This document shows positions 1 to 5,507 of a stretch of DNA of 5,507 bases, piece after piece. The stretch comes from a virus. Lineage: Duplodnaviria > Heunggongvirae > Uroviricota > Caudoviricetes. Where the stretch lies: IMG/VR virus record IMGVR_UViG_3300028485_000059, positions 1 through 5,507 of that record. One strand, given 5' to 3'. Every line of letters starts with the position of its first letter. Position 1 is the stretch's first letter. The notes beneath the pieces are model-generated. The model saw only the letters and a program-made list of their open reading frames with translations. It was not told the DNA's origin and searched no databases. The position numbers and the translations under genes were made by a program.

Positions 1-103
1 AGAAACCGGAGAATGGCAGTGGACATTTCAGGTCGGGGACCTTGAAAACGTCAATATCACTCACTGGGCAGTAATGCCGAAAGCACCGGAGAATAAGAAA
101 TGA
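1..103 (+). CDS. 3' end of an upstream gene (partial; start lies outside the window)
   Basis: Frame open from base 2 to TGA at 101-103 (…ETGEWQWTFQVGDLENVNITHWAVMPKAPENKK*). The stop overlaps the next ATG (ATGA at 100-103), the same coupling pattern seen through the rest of the operon. No family recognised. Confidence 0.35.
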   Translation, partial: ETGEWQWTFQVGDLENVNITHWAVMPKAPENKK

Positions 104-303
104 GCGTGATAAAAACTCATACAGGAATTGTTATCACCCGAGACGGTCCGCAGGTAAAAAAACTGCACCAGACAAAGCGGATGTGGGTCGTCGGAAAAAA
201 CGAGTTTTACCACAAAGAAACCGGACGCCGCCACTTTGCAGAAAATACGCGCCGCCGACTGCTGATCGACAGCATCAAGCCTATCGAGGTGAAGCATGTT
301 TAA
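100..303 (+). CDS. hypothetical small phage protein (67 aa)
   Basis: ATG at 100 preceded by GGAGAA Shine-Dalgarno; stop TAA 301-303 overlaps the next start (ATGTTTAA). Part of the coupled operon. No motif recognised. Confidence 0.5.
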   Translation: MSVIKTHTGIVITRDGPQVKKLHQTKRMWVVGKNEFYHKETGRRHFAENTRRRLLIDSIKPIEVKHV

Positions 304-535
304 ACAGAACGAAAAATCTATCGCTCAAATTGCTGAGTATATCCCGCGTGCGTGCCGGGGTATGCAGTTGCAGGAAGCCAAAGCGCGCCTGGAGAAAAAA
401 ATTGCGCTCTATATCGATGACGGCTGTGATGCTGCCGTTCTTAACGCAGCGTTCGCGCCAGCTCTTAACAGTCATACGCGGGAGTCTTTTTTTTCGCGCA
501 TCGCAGCGCAGATCCGTAAAGGAGGCAACCAGTGA
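296..535 (+). CDS. hypothetical small phage protein (79 aa)
   Basis: ATG 296 with GAGGTGA Shine-Dalgarno 6 nt upstream; stop TGA 533-535 overlaps the GTG start of the next gene (GTGA). No motif recognised. Confidence 0.5.
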   Translation: MFKQNEKSIAQIAEYIPRACRGMQLQEAKARLEKKIALYIDDGCDAAVLNAAFAPALNSHTRESFFSRIAAQIRKGGNQ

Positions 536-1086
536 GCGAGATTAACTATCAGGCTCTGCGACTGGCGGCAGAAAATGCAACACCAGGCGAATGGTGTGCT
601 GATGACTACCATGGAGTAATTGCCGATGCCGGACTGAACGCCAATTACTACATAGCATCATGCTCAGGACCAGATAATCGCGCCAATAAACGATTCATAG
701 CCGCCGCCAATCCTGCCACCGTCTTGGCGCTGCTAGATGAGCTGGAAGCAGCAGAGAAGCGAAACGCTGAATTACAAAGCGAGAATGCATACATCCGCAA
801 CCGGTACAAAGAACTGGACCTATTAATCGGGAAAAACATTCTGGTCATGCAGGCTGCCATTATCGAATGGCAGGCAACTGGCGACGCTAAGAGCGGACTG
901 GCATGGATTTATAACACACTGTTTGGCCCTGGCGAATTACCGGACGAATCTGAGAAAGATGCTCAGGCCTACTTTAATCGCAAATATGCACCGATTGACG
1001 AAAAGCTCATGGCGCTTCACAAGTGGTTTTGGGAACAAAGTGAAGCCGAGCGCGCCGCCGCCAACATTGGTGTGAAGGGGAAGTGA
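532..1086 (+). CDS. Ead/Ea22-like family phage protein (184 aa)
   Basis: GTG start with strong AAAGGAGG Shine-Dalgarno. N-terminal QALRLAAENATPGEW and internal FIAAANPATVLALLDELEAAEKRNAEL match my recollection of the Ead/Ea22-like family of lambdoid/P22-like prophages. Assignment is from memory, not a search. Confidence 0.7.
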   Translation: MSEINYQALRLAAENATPGEWCADDYHGVIADAGLNANYYIASCSGPDNRANKRFIAAANPATVLALLDELEAAEKRNAELQSENAYIRNRYKELDLLIGKNILVMQAAIIEWQATGDAKSGLAWIYNTLFGPGELPDESEKDAQAYFNRKYAPIDEKLMALHKWFWEQSEAERAAANIGVKGK

Positions 1087-1087
1087 G

Positions 1088-1279
1088 ATGAACGGACAAA
1101 TCTCAATTGTTCGACCGGGAGCATGTGACGATTGCGAGATACGAATGATTATTCGTCTGGCGAGGGGGAAAACAATAACTGCTCTCATTACTCCTGAAAA
1201 TCTCGCATTAGCATTAACCGGAAAGTCAGACCTGCCAGTAGAGCTAAAGCTGCGAAATATTGAGATTAAAGTGAAATAG
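1088..1279 (+). CDS. hypothetical small phage protein (63 aa)
   Basis: ATG 1088 starts 2 nt after the upstream stop; AAGGGGAAG Shine-Dalgarno-like sequence. No motif recognised. Confidence 0.45.
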   Translation: MNGQISIVRPGACDDCEIRMIIRLARGKTITALITPENLALALTGKSDLPVELKLRNIEIKVK

Positions 1280-1281
1280 TT

Positions 1282-2040
1282 ATGAATACTCTTACCAAAG
1301 AATGGTTACAGAACACGATTACCGGAATTGAGTCGATAATAGACGATAAATCGTTTGTATGTAGTGAAATAGAATTCGAAATAGGTCAGGTTAACAACAT
1401 ACTTACCGCATTTAAAATTGCACTGGCATCGCTGGCAGCAGTATCGGATGAACGGGCAGCCTATGAATTATTTATGGAGAAGCGTTTCGGGGAATCTGTA
1501 GATCGCCGCAGGGCAAAAAATGGTGATAGAGAATACATGGCATGGGATATGGCGCTTGGCTGGATTATCTGGTGTCACCGCGCCGCCATGCTTCAGGGAG
1601 GCCAACCTGTAAACCAAACTTACAACTTGCCAGAATTAATCGAAGGCATGGAAGTTTCCATTGATGTTAGCACTTGTGATGCTGATTTAGGTAATCGCTA
1701 TTTCGGCACCGTCACCGAGGCGTTAGAACTTGATACAGCCAAGAATGGTTACATCCTCCTGGTTCAGGACGCAGAGCCTAACTTCGATGTAAATGGCAAC
1801 TCTCCGGGAACTCCGGATAGTTGGATAAGCTGTAGTGATCAAATGCCTGAAAAGGGCCAGAACGTGCTTATTTCGGTGAATTTCGATAGCTCTCTGGTTG
1901 AACCGCTAATATGCTCCGCACGCTATACCGGAAGCACCTTTCGGCGCGGAGATGCAACGATTAAGCCGGGTAATGGTATTGAGCAAGCAACTCACTGGAT
2001 GCCGCTACCGGAACCGCCGCAGGAGGTTAACCGTGGCTAA
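1282..2040 (+). CDS. DUF551 domain phage protein (252 aa; unassigned N-terminal region plus C-terminal DUF551)
   Basis: C-terminus WISCSDQMPEKGQNVLI…ATHWMPLPEPP matches the DUF551 signature as I recall it (W…LPE…THWMPLPEPP). Stop TAA 2038-2040 overlaps the downstream GTG start. Confidence 0.7.
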   Translation: MNTLTKEWLQNTITGIESIIDDKSFVCSEIEFEIGQVNNILTAFKIALASLAAVSDERAAYELFMEKRFGESVDRRRAKNGDREYMAWDMALGWIIWCHRAAMLQGGQPVNQTYNLPELIEGMEVSIDVSTCDADLGNRYFGTVTEALELDTAKNGYILLVQDAEPNFDVNGNSPGTPDSWISCSDQMPEKGQNVLISVNFDSSLVEPLICSARYTGSTFRRGDATIKPGNGIEQATHWMPLPEPPQEVNRG

Positions 2041-2314
2041 CCTGCAACTTGCCGTCAAAGGTGAATACTTCGATGCAATGATTCGCGGAGAGAAAACAGA
2101 AGAGTATCGCCTGTGTAATGACTACTGGAATAAGCGAATTATGTTCCGCGAGTATGACCGCCTGATTATCACAAAGGGATATCCGAAGCGCGACGACTAC
2201 AGCCGCAGAATTGATGTTCCGTATGACGGATATGAAATCAAGACAATCACACATCCACACTTCGGTGATAAACCGGTAAAGGTGTTCGCGATAAAGGTAA
2301 ATATTGATGGCTAA
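2033..2314 (+). CDS. ASCH/DUF3850-like (PUA-fold) domain protein (93 aa)
   Basis: The ORF track begins at 1952, but GTG at 2033 has a perfect AGGAGG Shine-Dalgarno 6 nt upstream and overlaps the previous stop (GTGGCTAA). N-terminal LQLAVKGEYFDAMIRGEKTEEYR resembles the ASCH/DUF3850 pattern (…YF..I..G.KT.E.R). Confidence 0.55.
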   Translation: MANLQLAVKGEYFDAMIRGEKTEEYRLCNDYWNKRIMFREYDRLIITKGYPKRDDYSRRIDVPYDGYEIKTITHPHFGDKPVKVFAIKVNIDG

Positions 2315-2645
2315 ATCAGCAGCAGAGCGCAAATCCGCTCAGAGAGCCAGACAAGCTGAATCCGGTGTACGTAAGCTGGAGATTGTGCTTGATGCTCAGG
2401 AAATTGAAATGCTGGAGCGTAACTGTGCCACGCGTCGCCCCGGGCGTGCGCCTTACGAATTTGGTGAGTATATAGCGTTACTGATCCGCCAGGATGATGT
2501 ACGCGTGCGCGGGCGTATAAAATCGATCAGCAGAAAACGTTGCGGTAAGTGCGGCGAGAGAGTTCCAGTTAATTCATGCCCGTGTAATGGTGACTCGCAA
2601 TGCTGGGTGACTAAAGGCTGGCATGAAACGAAATTAATAGTGTGA
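2307..2645 (+). CDS. hypothetical Cys-rich protein, putative DNA-binding/regulatory (112 aa)
   Basis: ATG 2307 overlaps the upstream stop (ATGGCTAA). C-terminal cysteine cluster CGKCGERVPVNSCPCNGDSQCW (C-x2-C-x9-C-x-C-x5-C) looks like a zinc ribbon. N-terminal RKLEIVLDAQEIEMLERN…YEFGEYIALLIRQ has strand-helix-helix character. Last gene before the terminase leader. Confidence 0.55.
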   Translation: MAKSAAERKSAQRARQAESGVRKLEIVLDAQEIEMLERNCATRRPGRAPYEFGEYIALLIRQDDVRVRGRIKSISRKRCGKCGERVPVNSCPCNGDSQCWVTKGWHETKLIV

Positions 2646-2653
2646 CATGTCAC
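2642..2653. promoter_or_regulatory. 12-bp perfect palindrome GTGACATGTCAC (copy 1), candidate protein-binding site
   Basis: Perfect dyad overlapping the stop codon of the Cys-rich gene. The 14-mer TGTGACATGTCACG recurs exactly at 4905-4918. Confidence 0.5.
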
Positions 2654-2693
2654 GAGTAGATTATGCATGATGAATTTGATGGTTTTGAATACT

Positions 2694-2720
2694 GCCGCCA
2701 ACTATGGCGGCTTTATTTTG
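2694..2720 (+). terminator. rho-independent terminator in the terS leader
   Basis: 7-bp GC-rich stem GCCGCCA / TGGCGGC (2694-2700, 2705-2711) with ACTA loop, followed by TTTATTTT (2712-2719). Confidence 0.65.
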
Positions 2721-2723
2721 CAT

Positions 2724-2754
2724 GGTACTATTACCAAAACGGTAACTATTACCA
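2724..2754. repeat. two tandem dyad-symmetric sites (GGTACTATTACCA / GGTAACTATTACCA) just upstream of terS
   Basis: Exact 10-mer ACTATTACCA at 2727-2736 and 2745-2754 (period 18 bp). Each unit is internally palindromic (GGTA-CTAT-TACC and GGTAA-CTA-TTACC). Confidence 0.5.
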
Positions 2755-2762
2755 CGGTGGTT

Positions 2763-3359
2763 ATGATGCCTGCTGAACCTAAAACCTATAAACGCAAATC
2801 AACGCAATTTAAGCCACTAACAGCAATGCAGGAGGCTTATTGCCAGTCATACATCAAAACGCCTGAAAACCAGACTCAGGCAGCGATTAATGCAGGATTC
2901 TCCCCAAATACAGCGGCAGTTAAAGCCAGTGTAATGATGCGCGATGAACGCATTCAAAAACGGATTGCCGAGTTGATGGAGGAGCGCAACAAACGAATGC
3001 GCGTCAGTGCTGATTACGTTCTCATGCGCCTGGTGGAGATCGACCAGATGGACGTGATCGACATCCTCAGCGACGATGGGAGCCTTAAACCAATCCATGA
3101 GTGGCCGAAAATCTGGCGCACTACGCTTAGCGGCTTTGATCTGTCATCGACCATCATGAACATGAACGAGGATTCGATAGAGACAATCCTCAAAAAAATT
3201 AAATGGCCTGACAAGGTGAAGAACCTCGAACTGATTGGTAAGCACGTCGACGTCAACGCGTTCAAAGAACGCATGGATGTTAATGTGAATGTGACAATCG
3301 CTGATCGCATAGCAGCAGCCAGGAAGCGACTCAAAGAACGTCAGGATGGTAATCAGTGA
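2763..3359 (+). CDS. terS: terminase small subunit (Terminase_2-like)
   Basis: QTQAAINAGFSPNTAAVKASVMMRDERIQKRIAEL matches the helix-turn-helix signature of Terminase_2-type small subunits. Stop overlaps the terL GTG start (GTGA at 3356-3359). Start set at ATG 2763 (ATG 2766 also possible) rather than the track's 2667, because 2667-2762 holds the terminator hairpin and the dyad repeats. Confidence 0.75.
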   Translation: MMPAEPKTYKRKSTQFKPLTAMQEAYCQSYIKTPENQTQAAINAGFSPNTAAVKASVMMRDERIQKRIAELMEERNKRMRVSADYVLMRLVEIDQMDVIDILSDDGSLKPIHEWPKIWRTTLSGFDLSSTIMNMNEDSIETILKKIKWPDKVKNLELIGKHVDVNAFKERMDVNVNVTIADRIAAARKRLKERQDGNQ

Positions 3360-4831
3360 CAGATACAGCGTTATCTCCTGAAGAGCAGTTGATCGAGGAT
3401 ATTGCAGGGTTCACTCACGATCCGCTTGGCTATGCCCTCTATGCGTTCCCGTGGGGGGAAGAGGGGACTGAATTAGCACATGCCACCGGTCCACGTCAGT
3501 GGCAAGCCGATGCGTTCCGAGAGATACGTGATCACCTGCAGAATCCAGAGACGCGCCATCAGCCGCTTATGCTGGCACGCGCTTCGGGGCACGGTATTGG
3601 TAAATCAGCATTCATCTCAATGCTGATCAACTGGGGCATGTCCACTTGCGAGGATTGTAAGGTCGTGGTGACCGCCAACACCGAAAACCAGCTACGAACG
3701 AAGACCTGGCCGGAAATTATCAAGTGGTCGAACCTTGCTATCACGAAAGACTGGTTTACCTGTACCGCTACCGAGATGTACAGCAATGATCCTGGGCACG
3801 ACAAGCGGTGGCGAGCTGACGCAATCCCCTGGTCTGAGCACAACACTGAGGCATTCGCCGGACTACACAACGAGCGTAAACGCATCATCGTGGTATTTGA
3901 TGAAGCGTCGAACATTGCGGATCTGGTGTGGGAAGTTGCCGAGGGTGCGCTAACGGACGAAGACACTGAGATTATCTGGGTGGCGTTCGGAAACCCTACA
4001 CGTAACACCGGGCGTTTTCGCGAATGTTTCCGCAAATATAAACACCGCTGGAAAACTGCGCAGATTGACAGCCGGACGGTGGAAGGCACTAACAAACAGC
4101 AGTTGCAGAAATGGGTTGATGACTACGGGGAAGACAGCGACTTCGTTAAAATCCGTGTGCGCGGCATATTCCCTGATGCATCTGAATTGCAGTTTATCCC
4201 TACCGGACTTACTGACGAGGCAATGAAACGGGTGATAACCGCTGCGCAGGTGGCACATGCTCCGGTGATAATCGGCGTTGACCCGGCATACTCTGGTGTT
4301 GATGACGCTGTGATATACCTGCGGCAGGGGCTGCACAGTAAGGTGCTGTGGACTGGCAACAAGACCACTGACGATCTGATTATGGCGAAGCGTATCGCTG
4401 ACTTTGAAGACCAGTACCAGGCTGACGCAGTGTTCATCGACTTCGGTTACGGAACTGGTCTGAAGTCAATCGGTGACGGCTGGGGGCGTACATGGCAACT
4501 TGTTCCGTTCGGTGGCGCGTCTACTGACCCACAGATGCTCAACAAGCGTGGAGAGATGTTCAACTCATGCAAGACATGGCTGAGGCTGGGCGGCATGCTT
4601 GATGACCAGGAAACAGCGGACGATCTGTCGGCGGCAGAGTACAAAGTTCGAGTGGACGGTAAAATCGTTATCGAACCGAAGGAAGATATCAAAGAACGAC
4701 TTGGGCGTTCTCCTGGTAAAGGCGATGCGCTACTGCTGACGTTTGCGTTCCCTGTGTCGAAGCGTCTGCGAATTCCCGGTCAGCAGAACCAGCAAGGCAA
4801 TGCCATCACAGATTACGATCCCTATGCTTAA
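3356..4831 (+). CDS. terL: terminase large subunit (ATPase plus nuclease), 491 aa
   Basis: Walker A-like ASGHGIGKS, Walker B RIIVVFDEAS, and C-terminal RNase H-like nuclease motif VIIGVDPAYSG…DDAV. Length and position directly after terS fit. GTG start coupled to the terS stop. Confidence 0.9.
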   Translation: MTDTALSPEEQLIEDIAGFTHDPLGYALYAFPWGEEGTELAHATGPRQWQADAFREIRDHLQNPETRHQPLMLARASGHGIGKSAFISMLINWGMSTCEDCKVVVTANTENQLRTKTWPEIIKWSNLAITKDWFTCTATEMYSNDPGHDKRWRADAIPWSEHNTEAFAGLHNERKRIIVVFDEASNIADLVWEVAEGALTDEDTEIIWVAFGNPTRNTGRFRECFRKYKHRWKTAQIDSRTVEGTNKQQLQKWVDDYGEDSDFVKIRVRGIFPDASELQFIPTGLTDEAMKRVITAAQVAHAPVIIGVDPAYSGVDDAVIYLRQGLHSKVLWTGNKTTDDLIMAKRIADFEDQYQADAVFIDFGYGTGLKSIGDGWGRTWQLVPFGGASTDPQMLNKRGEMFNSCKTWLRLGGMLDDQETADDLSAAEYKVRVDGKIVIEPKEDIKERLGRSPGKGDALLLTFAFPVSKRLRIPGQQNQQGNAITDYDPYA

Positions 4832-4870
4832 TCCGCTGGTGGGGATAATGTCGTTGATATCCTCTGGTGA

Positions 4871-4907
4871 GGATAAAACAAAGCCAGCTCATAGGCTGGC
4901 TGTTTGT
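4871..4907. terminator. bidirectional intrinsic terminator between convergent terL and the DUF2829 gene
   Basis: Stem AGCCAGC / GCTGGCT (4882-4888, 4895-4901), loop TCATAG. On the - strand it is followed by UUUGUUUUAU (strong); on the + strand by GUUUGU (weaker). A second hairpin TATCCTC-TGGT-GAGGATA lies at 4858-4875. Confidence 0.6.
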
Positions 4908-4917
4908 GACATGTCAC
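4906..4917. promoter_or_regulatory. 12-bp perfect palindrome GTGACATGTCAC (copy 2)
   Basis: Exact repeat of the 14-mer TGTGACATGTCACG seen at 2641-2654; sits between the bidirectional terminator and the stop of the - strand DUF2829 gene. Confidence 0.5.
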
Positions 4918-4921
4918 GGTG

Positions 4922-5218
4922 TTATTGAATTACAATCCAATCATCAGATAGCAGATCGGTTTGAGATGCCAGCCACGGTACAAAGCAACCGTCAGCAGTT
5001 TTCATCCCAATCCACGGTAGAAGTTTAACGCCAGGTACAAATGTATACTCGTCACCGCATGTAACGTCAAATCGCCAATCGTTCGGAGTGGCCGATTGCG
5101 GTGGCTTAACCAGTTGCAGATACATGCCTTTGCCATTCCATCCGGCACGTGCAATGCGCTTACCATCTTTGAGTGATGACAAAGCAGTGGAGAAAGATAC
5201 TGTTGATGTTTCGCTCAT
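4922..5218 (-). CDS. DUF2829 family protein (Tad2-like; candidate anti-defence protein), 98 aa
   Basis: ATG at 5218 (- strand) with AAGGTGAG Shine-Dalgarno. Motifs ARAGWNGKGMYLQL and KTADGCFVPWLASQTDLLSDDWIVI match the DUF2829 signature as I recall it (GWNGKGM…MKTADG…PWLASQTDMLAEDW). Flanked by intrinsic terminators on both sides and on the opposite strand to the terminase operon. Confidence 0.7.
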   Translation of the reverse strand: MSETSTVSFSTALSSLKDGKRIARAGWNGKGMYLQLVKPPQSATPNDWRFDVTCGDEYTFVPGVKLLPWIGMKTADGCFVPWLASQTDLLSDDWIVIQ

Positions 5219-5229
5219 AATCTCACCTT

Positions 5230-5253
5230 AAAAAAATGCCCGGCGAACCGGGC
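5230..5253 (-). terminator. rho-independent terminator (T2) immediately upstream of the DUF2829 gene
   Basis: On the - strand: GCCCGG-UUCG-CCGGGC (6-bp GC stem, UUCG tetraloop) followed by A + U7, then directly the Shine-Dalgarno of the DUF2829 gene. Confidence 0.7.
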
Positions 5254-5330
5254 GAACTGGAAGCAATGAGTTATGCCTTCCGTTGCTGTACGGGTTTACA
5301 GCATGAAGTCATCGCAATGGCGTCCTGCTG

Positions 5331-5373
5331 TAAAAAGGGCGGTGATAGTCCTTCAAGGGAAACCATCACCGCC
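5331..5373 (-). terminator. rho-independent terminator (T1) downstream of the tRNA gene
   Basis: On the - strand: 9-bp stem GGCGGTGAT / ATCACCGCC (5365-5373 / 5338-5346) around an 18-nt partly paired loop, followed by CUUUUUAC. Lies about 43 nt past the tRNA 3' end. Confidence 0.6.
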
Positions 5374-5416
5374 AAGCACCTGGAACTTCTGGCATCACGG
5401 TCCTTAGGCGTGATTC

Positions 5417-5493
5417 TGGCGTGGCATGCAGGATTCGAACCTGCGACCAACCGCTTAGAAGGCGGTTGCTCTGTCCAGCTGAGCTAATGCCAC
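5417..5493 (-). tRNA. tRNA-Arg (anticodon UCU), 77 nt including encoded CCA
   Basis: Reverse complement folds as a cloverleaf: acceptor GTGGCAT/ATGCCAC (7 bp), D-arm GCTC…GAGC, anticodon stem ACCGC/GCGGT with loop CU-UCU-AA, T-arm GCAGG-TTCGAAT-CCTGC, discriminator G, CCA. T-arm matches enterobacterial argU as recalled, but the acceptor and anticodon stems differ. Confidence 0.85.
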
Positions 5494-5507
5494 AACGCTG
5501 AGAGCAC

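Follow-up and report, generated by a model that had tools for sequence, protein, structure and literature searches.

A Tad2-family gene, probably an anti-Thoeris sponge, as exchangeable cargo in a fixed slot of phiV10-like Escherichia coli prophages

A 5,507-nucleotide stretch of viral DNA (positions 1 to 5,507 of IMG/VR record IMGVR_UViG_3300028485_000059, hereafter the window) is part of a phiV10/epsilon15-like (Uetakevirus) prophage of Escherichia coli and carries a reverse-oriented gene of the Tad2 family. The locus is ordered as small terminase, large terminase, the reverse-oriented cargo gene together with a tRNA-Arg, a small open reading frame (ORF), and the portal gene (Table 1). The cargo ORF starts with ATG, ends in a stop codon at 4922-4924, and encodes a protein of 98 amino acids, MSETSTVSFSTALSSLKDGKRIARAGWNGKGMYLQLVKPPQSATPNDWRFDVTCGDEYTFVPGVKLLPWIGMKTADGCFVPWLASQTDLLSDDWIVIQ, at a site whose content is exchanged between related prophages. 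We describe this gene and its slot and argue that the protein is probably a tetrameric anti-Thoeris sponge for a signal made by Toll/interleukin-1 receptor (TIR) enzymes, carried as exchangeable cargo in a fixed prophage socket.

Family, fold and ligand pocket of the cargo protein

An original prediction, made from the DNA letters, had proposed that this minus-strand ORF belongs to DUF2829 (Tad2-like) on the strength of two motifs, GWNGKGM and MKTADG...PWLASQTDLLSDDW. Both motifs are present in the translation, and the Pfam search that it called for places the protein in PF11195 “Tad2-like” with an E-value of 3.2e-24 and 85.7 bits over profile positions 2-73 of 73, the gathering cut-off being 25 bits, a family match far beyond chance. 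All seven phmmer matches in the PDB are Tad2/AcrIIA7 proteins, with E-values from ~3e-15 to ~6e-12, among them HgmTad2/AcrIIA7 (3e-15), ModTad2 (2.5e-14), SptTad2 (3.7e-13) and SPO1 Tad2 (4.8e-12), and the RefSeq name of the protein is already “DUF2829 domain-containing protein”. Two further traits fit the family as well: the protein is short, and its gene is flanked by the terminase and portal genes in a prophage of Uetakevirus type. The Pfam scan found no match to PF13876, the Acb4 family. Scans against NCBIfam and PADLOC returned no match, a result that is uninformative because neither library models the Tad2 family.

The GC content at third codon positions (GC3) is 0.39 in the cargo gene compared with 0.585 in the large terminase, which fits horizontal acquisition. 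When the gene is compared with a 94%-identical allele from a metagenomic relative (L014, Logan DRR178415), the ratio of nonsynonymous to synonymous divergence per site (pN/pS) is 0.06 at a pS of 0.45, demonstrating strong purifying selection.

An AlphaFold2 model built from 81 homologues reached a mean predicted local distance difference test score (pLDDT) of 82.5 and a predicted template modelling score (pTM) of 0.72. It contains helices at residues 9-17 and 86-90 and strands at 21-24, 33-37, 69-73, 79-81 and 94-97, that is, the N-terminal helix, antiparallel beta sheet and short C-terminal helix of the Tad2 fold. In a Foldseek search of the PDB, ranks 1-24 were all Tad2/AcrIIA7 chains, each with a probability of 1.00 and template modelling (TM) scores of 0.6-0.84, the next match having an E-value above 1. 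Comparison of a predicted structure with Tad2 had been suggested together with the original prediction, and the model thus resembles Tad2 folds exclusively across those top 24 ranks.

The same holds for the second check suggested there, conservation of the ligand-pocket residues. SPO1 Tad2 holds 1''-3' glycocyclic ADP-ribose (gcADPR) through W25, N26, W73, D79, T78, I63 and T65, with D67, H71 and S76 holding waters that contact the ligand (bioRxiv 10.1101/2023.05.01.538930). In our alignment A4, these positions correspond to W27 (W25), N28 (N26), M72 (I63), T74 (T65), D76 (D67), V80 (H71), W82 (W73), S85 (S76), T87 (T78) and D88 (D79) of the window protein, so that eight of the ten contacts are identical, and the other two, M72 and V80, are the residues found in HgmTad2 as M76 and V84. 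In HgmTad2, W21/N22/G23 and S90/T92/D93 are the residues that were mutated to inactivate its gcADPR pocket (PMC10680739); all six are conserved here, as W27/N28/G29 and S85/T87/D88. Across the 81 homologues, W27, N28, T74, W82, S85 and D88 are invariant, and conservation is 90% or higher at M72, D76, V80 and T87.

A polymorphic one-gene slot in a fixed scaffold

The variable segment coincides with the cargo ORF. In alignments A1 and A3, the shared left flank ends with ...GACATGTCACGG at 4919 and the shared right flank starts with CTCACCTT at 5222, making the swap ORF-precise; the alignments cover the Tad2, Acb4-like, phrog_4846 remnant (truncated) and empty variants, the phrog_4780 and phrog_3163 alleles not being aligned. 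Since the flanks are shared up to these two positions, the ribosome-binding site, the upstream hairpin and the convergent terminator belong to the scaffold and not to the cargo.

Table 1. Positions of the slot, its scaffold and the flanking genes in the window
Feature	Coordinates	Strand	Basis or remark
Small terminase (Pfam Terminase_2)	2667-3359	+	Pfam
Large terminase, bordering the slot on the left (setting, not cargo)	3356..4831	+	PHROG phrog_2, E 2.6e-53; annotated terminase in relatives
Hairpin AGCCAGC-TCATAG-GCTGGCT where the large terminase and cargo genes converge; minus-strand terminator, tail UUGUUUUAUC	4872..4901	.	Scan
Variable segment of the slot	4920..5221	.	Alignments A1 and A3
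Tad2-family (PF11195/DUF2829) coding sequence, swappable cargo	4922..5218	-	ORF list, Pfam, phmmer, AlphaFold2/Foldseek, pN/pS
Shine-Dalgarno AAGGTGAG, 3 nucleotides 5' of the ATG; part of the scaffold “socket”	5222..5229	-	Read from sequence
Intrinsic-terminator-like hairpin GCCCGG-UUCG-CCGGGC, then A + U7; directly upstream of the ribosome-binding site	5230..5253	-	Scan
14-base-pair hairpin with CUUUUU tail	5328..5373	-	Scan; kept in Klebsiella and Salmonella relatives
tRNA-Arg carried by the phage (anticodon UCU), upstream of the cargo	5417..5493	-	ARAGORN; Rfam tRNA, 71.7 bits

The slot locus is found in ~515 of 5426 complete E. coli genomes. We took a census of 49 evenly spaced records matching both flanks, in which one record per size class was inspected and the others were placed by span length and annotation. 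A 123-residue “Gp49 family protein” fills the slot in 27 of them, phrog_4846 (139-140 residues) in 13, one truncated copy included, phrog_4780 (272-282 residues) in five, and phrog_3163 (115 residues) in one; two slots are empty, and one holds the window Tad2 gene. The Gp49 family allele is a PF13876 protein (119.5 bits, Pfam) with a weak direct match to a solved Acb4 (PDB 9E4W), PF13876 being the Acb4 anti-CBASS sponge family (10.1101/2024.12.30.630793; 10.1101/2025.07.12.664507), where CBASS stands for cyclic-oligonucleotide-based antiphage signaling system. The suggestion that the gene is cargo is thereby supported, as the single-gene slot that it fills varies between prophages and most often holds an Acb4-family gene. 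The same slot carries a 173-residue Tad2-like gene in a Klebsiella relative and the 94%-identical Tad2 allele in L014, where no tRNA was found in the region scanned and where a second ORF, of 87 residues, lies downstream of the Tad2 gene (L014 5434-5697, plus strand). Other slot variants are represented by loci L003 and L007-L013.

None of phrog_4846, phrog_4780 and phrog_3163 gave a significant match in Pfam, the PDB or PADLOC. The phrog_4846 family consists of hypothetical proteins from Enterobacteriaceae only, and its structure prediction (pLDDT 64, pTM 0.36) was too poor for a fold search. The weak matches of the phrog_4780 allele (272/282 residues) are read as coiled-coil-type, its N-terminal stretch looking hydrophobic, and the phrog_3163 allele is repetitive, with a weak bactofilin match. 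In the slot of E. coli PF9285 (L019:323-829, minus strand; WP_250205060.1), we found a 168-residue in-frame phrog_4846-Tad2 chimera, residues 1-74 of which are 89% identical to the phrog_4846 allele, while residues 72-168 match the window Tad2 at 96 of 97 positions. The chimera could be an inhibitor made of two modules, or it could have arisen by accidental recombination. Because fusion to known sponges has served as a discovery signal (10.1101/2025.07.12.664507), this chimera makes phrog_4846 a reasonable candidate counter-defence module.

A more far-reaching and, in our judgment, doubtful proposal is that the terminase-tRNA-Arg socket of phiV10-like prophages is dedicated to counter-defence. 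If it were, phrog_4846 (the second commonest allele), phrog_4780 and phrog_3163 would be new anti-defence families, the PF9285 chimera would be a two-module inhibitor, and allele turnover would track the signaling defences of the hosts or decoy systems that detect sponges. The socket amounts to a natural swap experiment, in which one fixed expression site of a widespread E. coli prophage lineage is filled by an Acb4 sponge, by a Tad2 sponge, by any of three uncharacterized proteins or by nothing, and comparing host defence repertoires across slot alleles could reveal what selects each sponge. The uncharacterized alleles make inexpensive and well-motivated counter-defence candidates, above all phrog_4846 with its fusion to this Tad2. 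The main interest lies in the allelic socket, the window gene being in itself a rare enterobacterial addition to the already known and well-studied Tad2 sponge family. In the literature, we found no paper naming Uetakevirus or phiV10 together with the Tad2 or Acb4 sponge families.

The variety of slot contents also bears on whether the protein has a counter-defence role at all, given that it could be a passenger, either a recombination relic in a hypervariable slot or a modulator of host nucleotide signaling in the lysogen. Such a reading would be consistent with the slot also taking proteins that do not look like sponges (the 272-residue one with weak coiled-coil-type matches and the repetitive 115-residue one) or nothing, with the failure of a promoter scan to find a promoter beside the gene, and with the rarity of the allele, the Tad2 gene being present in only 3 of 5426 complete E. 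coli genomes even by word-11 blastn. However, the ribosome-binding site is intact, and the strong purifying selection (pN/pS 0.06) together with a pocket in which every ligand-contacting residue is conserved makes a functionless passenger unlikely, so that we regard this explanation as very improbable.

A scan of the minus strand found three terminator-like hairpins (5373->5338, 5253->5238 and 4901->4882) versus 0.8 expected. The original prediction had placed an intrinsic terminator on each side of the gene, and both hairpins are indeed there; the upstream one, however, is co-directional with the gene, its stem ending 8 nucleotides short of the Shine-Dalgarno sequence, and both are parts of the scaffold. 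This proximal hairpin is kept in E. coli, Klebsiella and L014, and in Salmonella phage SPN1S its stem shows a compensatory change (GCCCAC...GTGGGC). The distal hairpin likely terminates the tRNA transcript. The hairpin between the convergent genes, annotated as a rho-independent terminator in phiV10 and kept in all aligned slot variants, possibly terminates plus-strand transcription too. The same Shine-Dalgarno sequence precedes the Acb4-like allele and the empty slot, with TTCACCTT before the phrog_4846 remnant and AAGGTGAA in L014. The spacer between the tRNA and the gene is strongly structured (folding z = -3.67). Besides, a conserved 9-base-pair stem, UUUACAGCA/UGCUGUAAA, in the spacer (5219-5416, minus strand; compare L006 3575-3784, L016 and L017) overlaps the U-tract of the first terminator, and Klebsiella phage BUCT711 has an extra ORF right after the distal hairpin, repeating the design of terminator, ribosome-binding site and ATG.

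This design raises the question of how such cargo gets expressed. A search for sigma-70-like promoters in 4700-5507 found none. In the near-identical relative ECSC054 (L001), the sole minus-strand promoter candidate, TAGACA-18-AATTAT overlapping a perfect TTGACA, is weak and lies ~340 nucleotides upstream of the tRNA, in a region just past the right end of the window (L001 6795-7160, minus strand), and no Rfam family matched the GC-rich leader between this candidate and the tRNA. With low confidence, we suggest that transcripts started at a promoter beyond the window, upstream of the tRNA, read through into the cargo. The moron-like context ascribed to the gene accordingly stands in part: the downstream terminator, the atypical GC3 and the presence/absence among relatives agree with it, whereas no adjacent promoter was found. 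As the ribosome-binding site and both terminators are moreover fixed scaffold, the gene is not a self-contained moron.

The neighboring genes agree with the layout first proposed, in which the gene runs opposite to the packaging operon, both terminase genes lying on the plus strand, and adjoins a tRNA. We considered and rejected a role of this tRNA as the prophage attachment site, because it sits inside the phage, between the large terminase and portal genes; it is also internal in free phage genomes, e.g., phiV10 typing phages and SPN1S. We likewise rejected the idea that rare codons tie the tRNA to the cargo, as the cargo gene has no AGA or AGG codons. An Rfam scan of the region from the gene to the tRNA found nothing beyond the tRNA, as we take two other matches to be chance, one to RyhB (19.5 bits, the gathering score being 55) and one to Plastid-ycf2 on the strand opposite the tRNA. 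An 83-residue ORF on the plus strand (5236-5487), which runs antisense to the tRNA and the spacer, is very probably no real gene; its phiV10 counterpart, PhiV10p04, is annotated as a hypothetical protein, and the phiV10 record lists no tRNA feature in the stretch covering PhiV10p04. The large terminase had no Pfam or NCBIfam match and is called “hypothetical protein” in many RefSeq genomes. Directly 5' of the small terminase, a 113-residue Cys-rich protein (2304-2645, plus strand; CGKCGERVPVNSCPCNGDSQC), is assigned to PHROG phrog_536 'transcriptional regulator' and might regulate late genes in this group of phages.

Proposed function and alternative ligands

Judging from the Tad2 structures already solved, the window protein would form a homotetramer with two pockets at protomer interfaces. 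These would close around an ADP-ribose-derived signal produced by the TIR enzymes of bacteria (ThsB of Thoeris), the likeliest being the 3' cyclic ADP-ribose (3'cADPR, or 1''-3' gcADPR) of type I Thoeris. W27 and W82 would pack the ligand, and N28, S85, T87 and D88 would contact its phosphates and hydroxyls. With the signal sequestered, the ThsA effector would never be switched on, and the phage could replicate. We have good confidence that the protein soaks up an immune signal and serves counter-defence, and type I Thoeris is inhibited by most Tad2 homologues assayed. The choice of 3'cADPR in particular we favor only slightly, since Tad2 homologues bind very different signals and phylogenetic trees are poor predictors of the ligand.

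Several observations weigh against this interpretation. The ligands reported for Tad2 homologues comprise 3'cADPR, histidine-ADP-ribose (His-ADPR), N7-cADPR, cyclic UMP and cyclic CMP (cUMP/cCMP), and cyclic dinucleotides (PMC12393519). The nearest assayed homologue identified, the Tad2 part of the Pm86 fusion, is only ~46-48% identical to the window protein; this Acb4-Tad2 fusion blocks both type I Thoeris and CBASS (10.1101/2025.07.12.664507). Residues 39-68 of our model, which form the insertion, are weakly modelled (pLDDT 58-60), residues 41-60 being the uncertain stretch, and in other Tad2 proteins this region forms a second pocket. Finally, the promoter scan found none close to the gene, which moreover lies behind two terminators of the same orientation, so that its expression is only presumed.

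The first of these points opens the way to an alternative in which fold and sponge mechanism are the same and the ligand met in E. coli is another one: His-ADPR (type II Thoeris), N7-cADPR (type IV), cUMP/cCMP (Pycsar), or a CBASS cyclic dinucleotide held in a second, insertion-built pocket. Tad2 homologues act against three types of Thoeris as well as against CBASS and Pycsar, many of them against more than one of these, and the normal occupant of the slot is an anti-CBASS sponge. The insertion, at 30 residues, lies between those of SPO1 Tad2 (24) and HgmTad2 (41), and it is the poorly modelled part of the protein. The second pocket of HgmTad2 binds cGG and 3'3'-cGAMP (cyclic GMP-AMP) through R31, S47, F70 and N85 on its 41-residue insertion (PMC10680739). 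Their equivalents in the window protein are K38, a gap, L66 and a gap, so that an HgmTad2-type cyclic-dinucleotide pocket is not conserved, and the window protein falls outside the subclass of reported cyclic-dinucleotide binders (HgmTad2, SptTad2), which have insertions of 35-41 residues between beta2 and beta5. As for the canonical pocket, its motif reads SQTD, as in the gcADPR binders SPO1 Tad2 and HgmTad2, and not SVSD, as in the His-ADPR binder ModTad2. On this balance, we judge another ligand unlikely, although it deserves to be kept in mind.

A different activity altogether is suggested by the top PDB sequence match, the metagenomic AcrIIA7/HgmTad2. Head-less AcrIIA7 binds tracrRNA (PMC13133391), and a protein of this type, a head-less DUF2829 tetramer, would act as an anti-CRISPR by blocking Cas9; homologues in phages Huey and Louie are indeed annotated as 'anti-CRISPR protein', labels that probably stem from family annotation. 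RNA binding by AcrIIA7 calls for a basic groove of K58, K66 and K71 (Phocaeicola dorei AcrIIA7 numbering) and its function for a Cas9 host. The equivalents here are K17, A25 and K30, the RNA-binding K66 (K19 in HgmTad2) being replaced by Ala25, and K93, likewise required for RNA binding, falls in the deleted part of the insertion. To our knowledge, E. coli has neither type II CRISPR-Cas9 nor tracrRNA. With one lysine lost, another deleted and a host without Cas9, we rejected the tracrRNA reading, whose probability we put as close to negligible, and retain the TIR-signal sponge as the preferred interpretation.

Relation to known sponges

SPO1 Tad2 (gp34.65; PDB 8SME/8SMF/8SMG), the founding anti-Thoeris sponge, belongs to the same Pfam family and has the same fold as the window protein (TM up to 0.84 on the target), with 89 residues compared with 98. 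The two proteins are ~35-39% identical and differ at two pocket positions, I63 and H71 of SPO1 Tad2 being Met and Val here, as well as in the beta2-beta5 insertion, which has 24 residues in SPO1 Tad2 and 30 of a different sequence in the window protein. Their carriers also differ, a Bacillus phage in one case and a temperate podovirus prophage of E. coli in the other. HgmTad2/metagenomic AcrIIA7 (PDB 8KBI-8KBM, 8WJC) is the best sequence match (E 3e-15), and its gcADPR pocket, W21/N22/G23, M76, V84 and S90/T92/D93, is entirely conserved in the window protein; in contrast, its second pocket (cGG, 3'3'-cGAMP) is not conserved, and its tracrRNA-binding K19 is an alanine.

Closer in host are Kapi1_043 and the IME10/Huey-type long Tad2-like proteins, which come from temperate podoviruses of E. 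coli (Lederbergvirus). The Tad2 domain of IME10/P0005 is ~76% identical to the window protein and has the same insertion sequence, and Kapi1_043 is ~46-48% identical. Unlike the window protein, these proteins have 166-173 residues, with an extra N-terminal domain of ~74 residues, and their genes lie between those for lysis and terminase, sharing the strand of these neighbors, and not in the reverse terminase-tRNA slot. The N-terminal domain (MTQHIGVKLINAFPM...SWSPKEVFEKAYRP) is conserved in the long Tad2-like proteins that phages of E. coli and Klebsiella encode, namely P0005, L004:3785-4306 (Kapi1_043) and L006:3785-4306, and had no Pfam match even at E<=10. Other close Tad2 homologues have tandem DUF2829 domains or a Cys-rich N-terminus.

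The counterpart that shares the locus itself is Acb4 (PF13876; SPO1 Acb4, PDB 9E4W), represented in the slot by the allele PhiV10p03 ('Gp49 family protein'). It uses an identical socket, sharing both the ribosome-binding site and the terminators, and is likewise a short phage protein, from a family whose members sequester nucleotide immune signals as tetramers. Natural fusions of Acb4 with Tad2 are frequent (10.1101/2025.07.12.664507). Yet the two families are unrelated, and Acb4 targets the cyclic dinucleotides of CBASS, not the ADP-ribose derivatives made by TIR enzymes.

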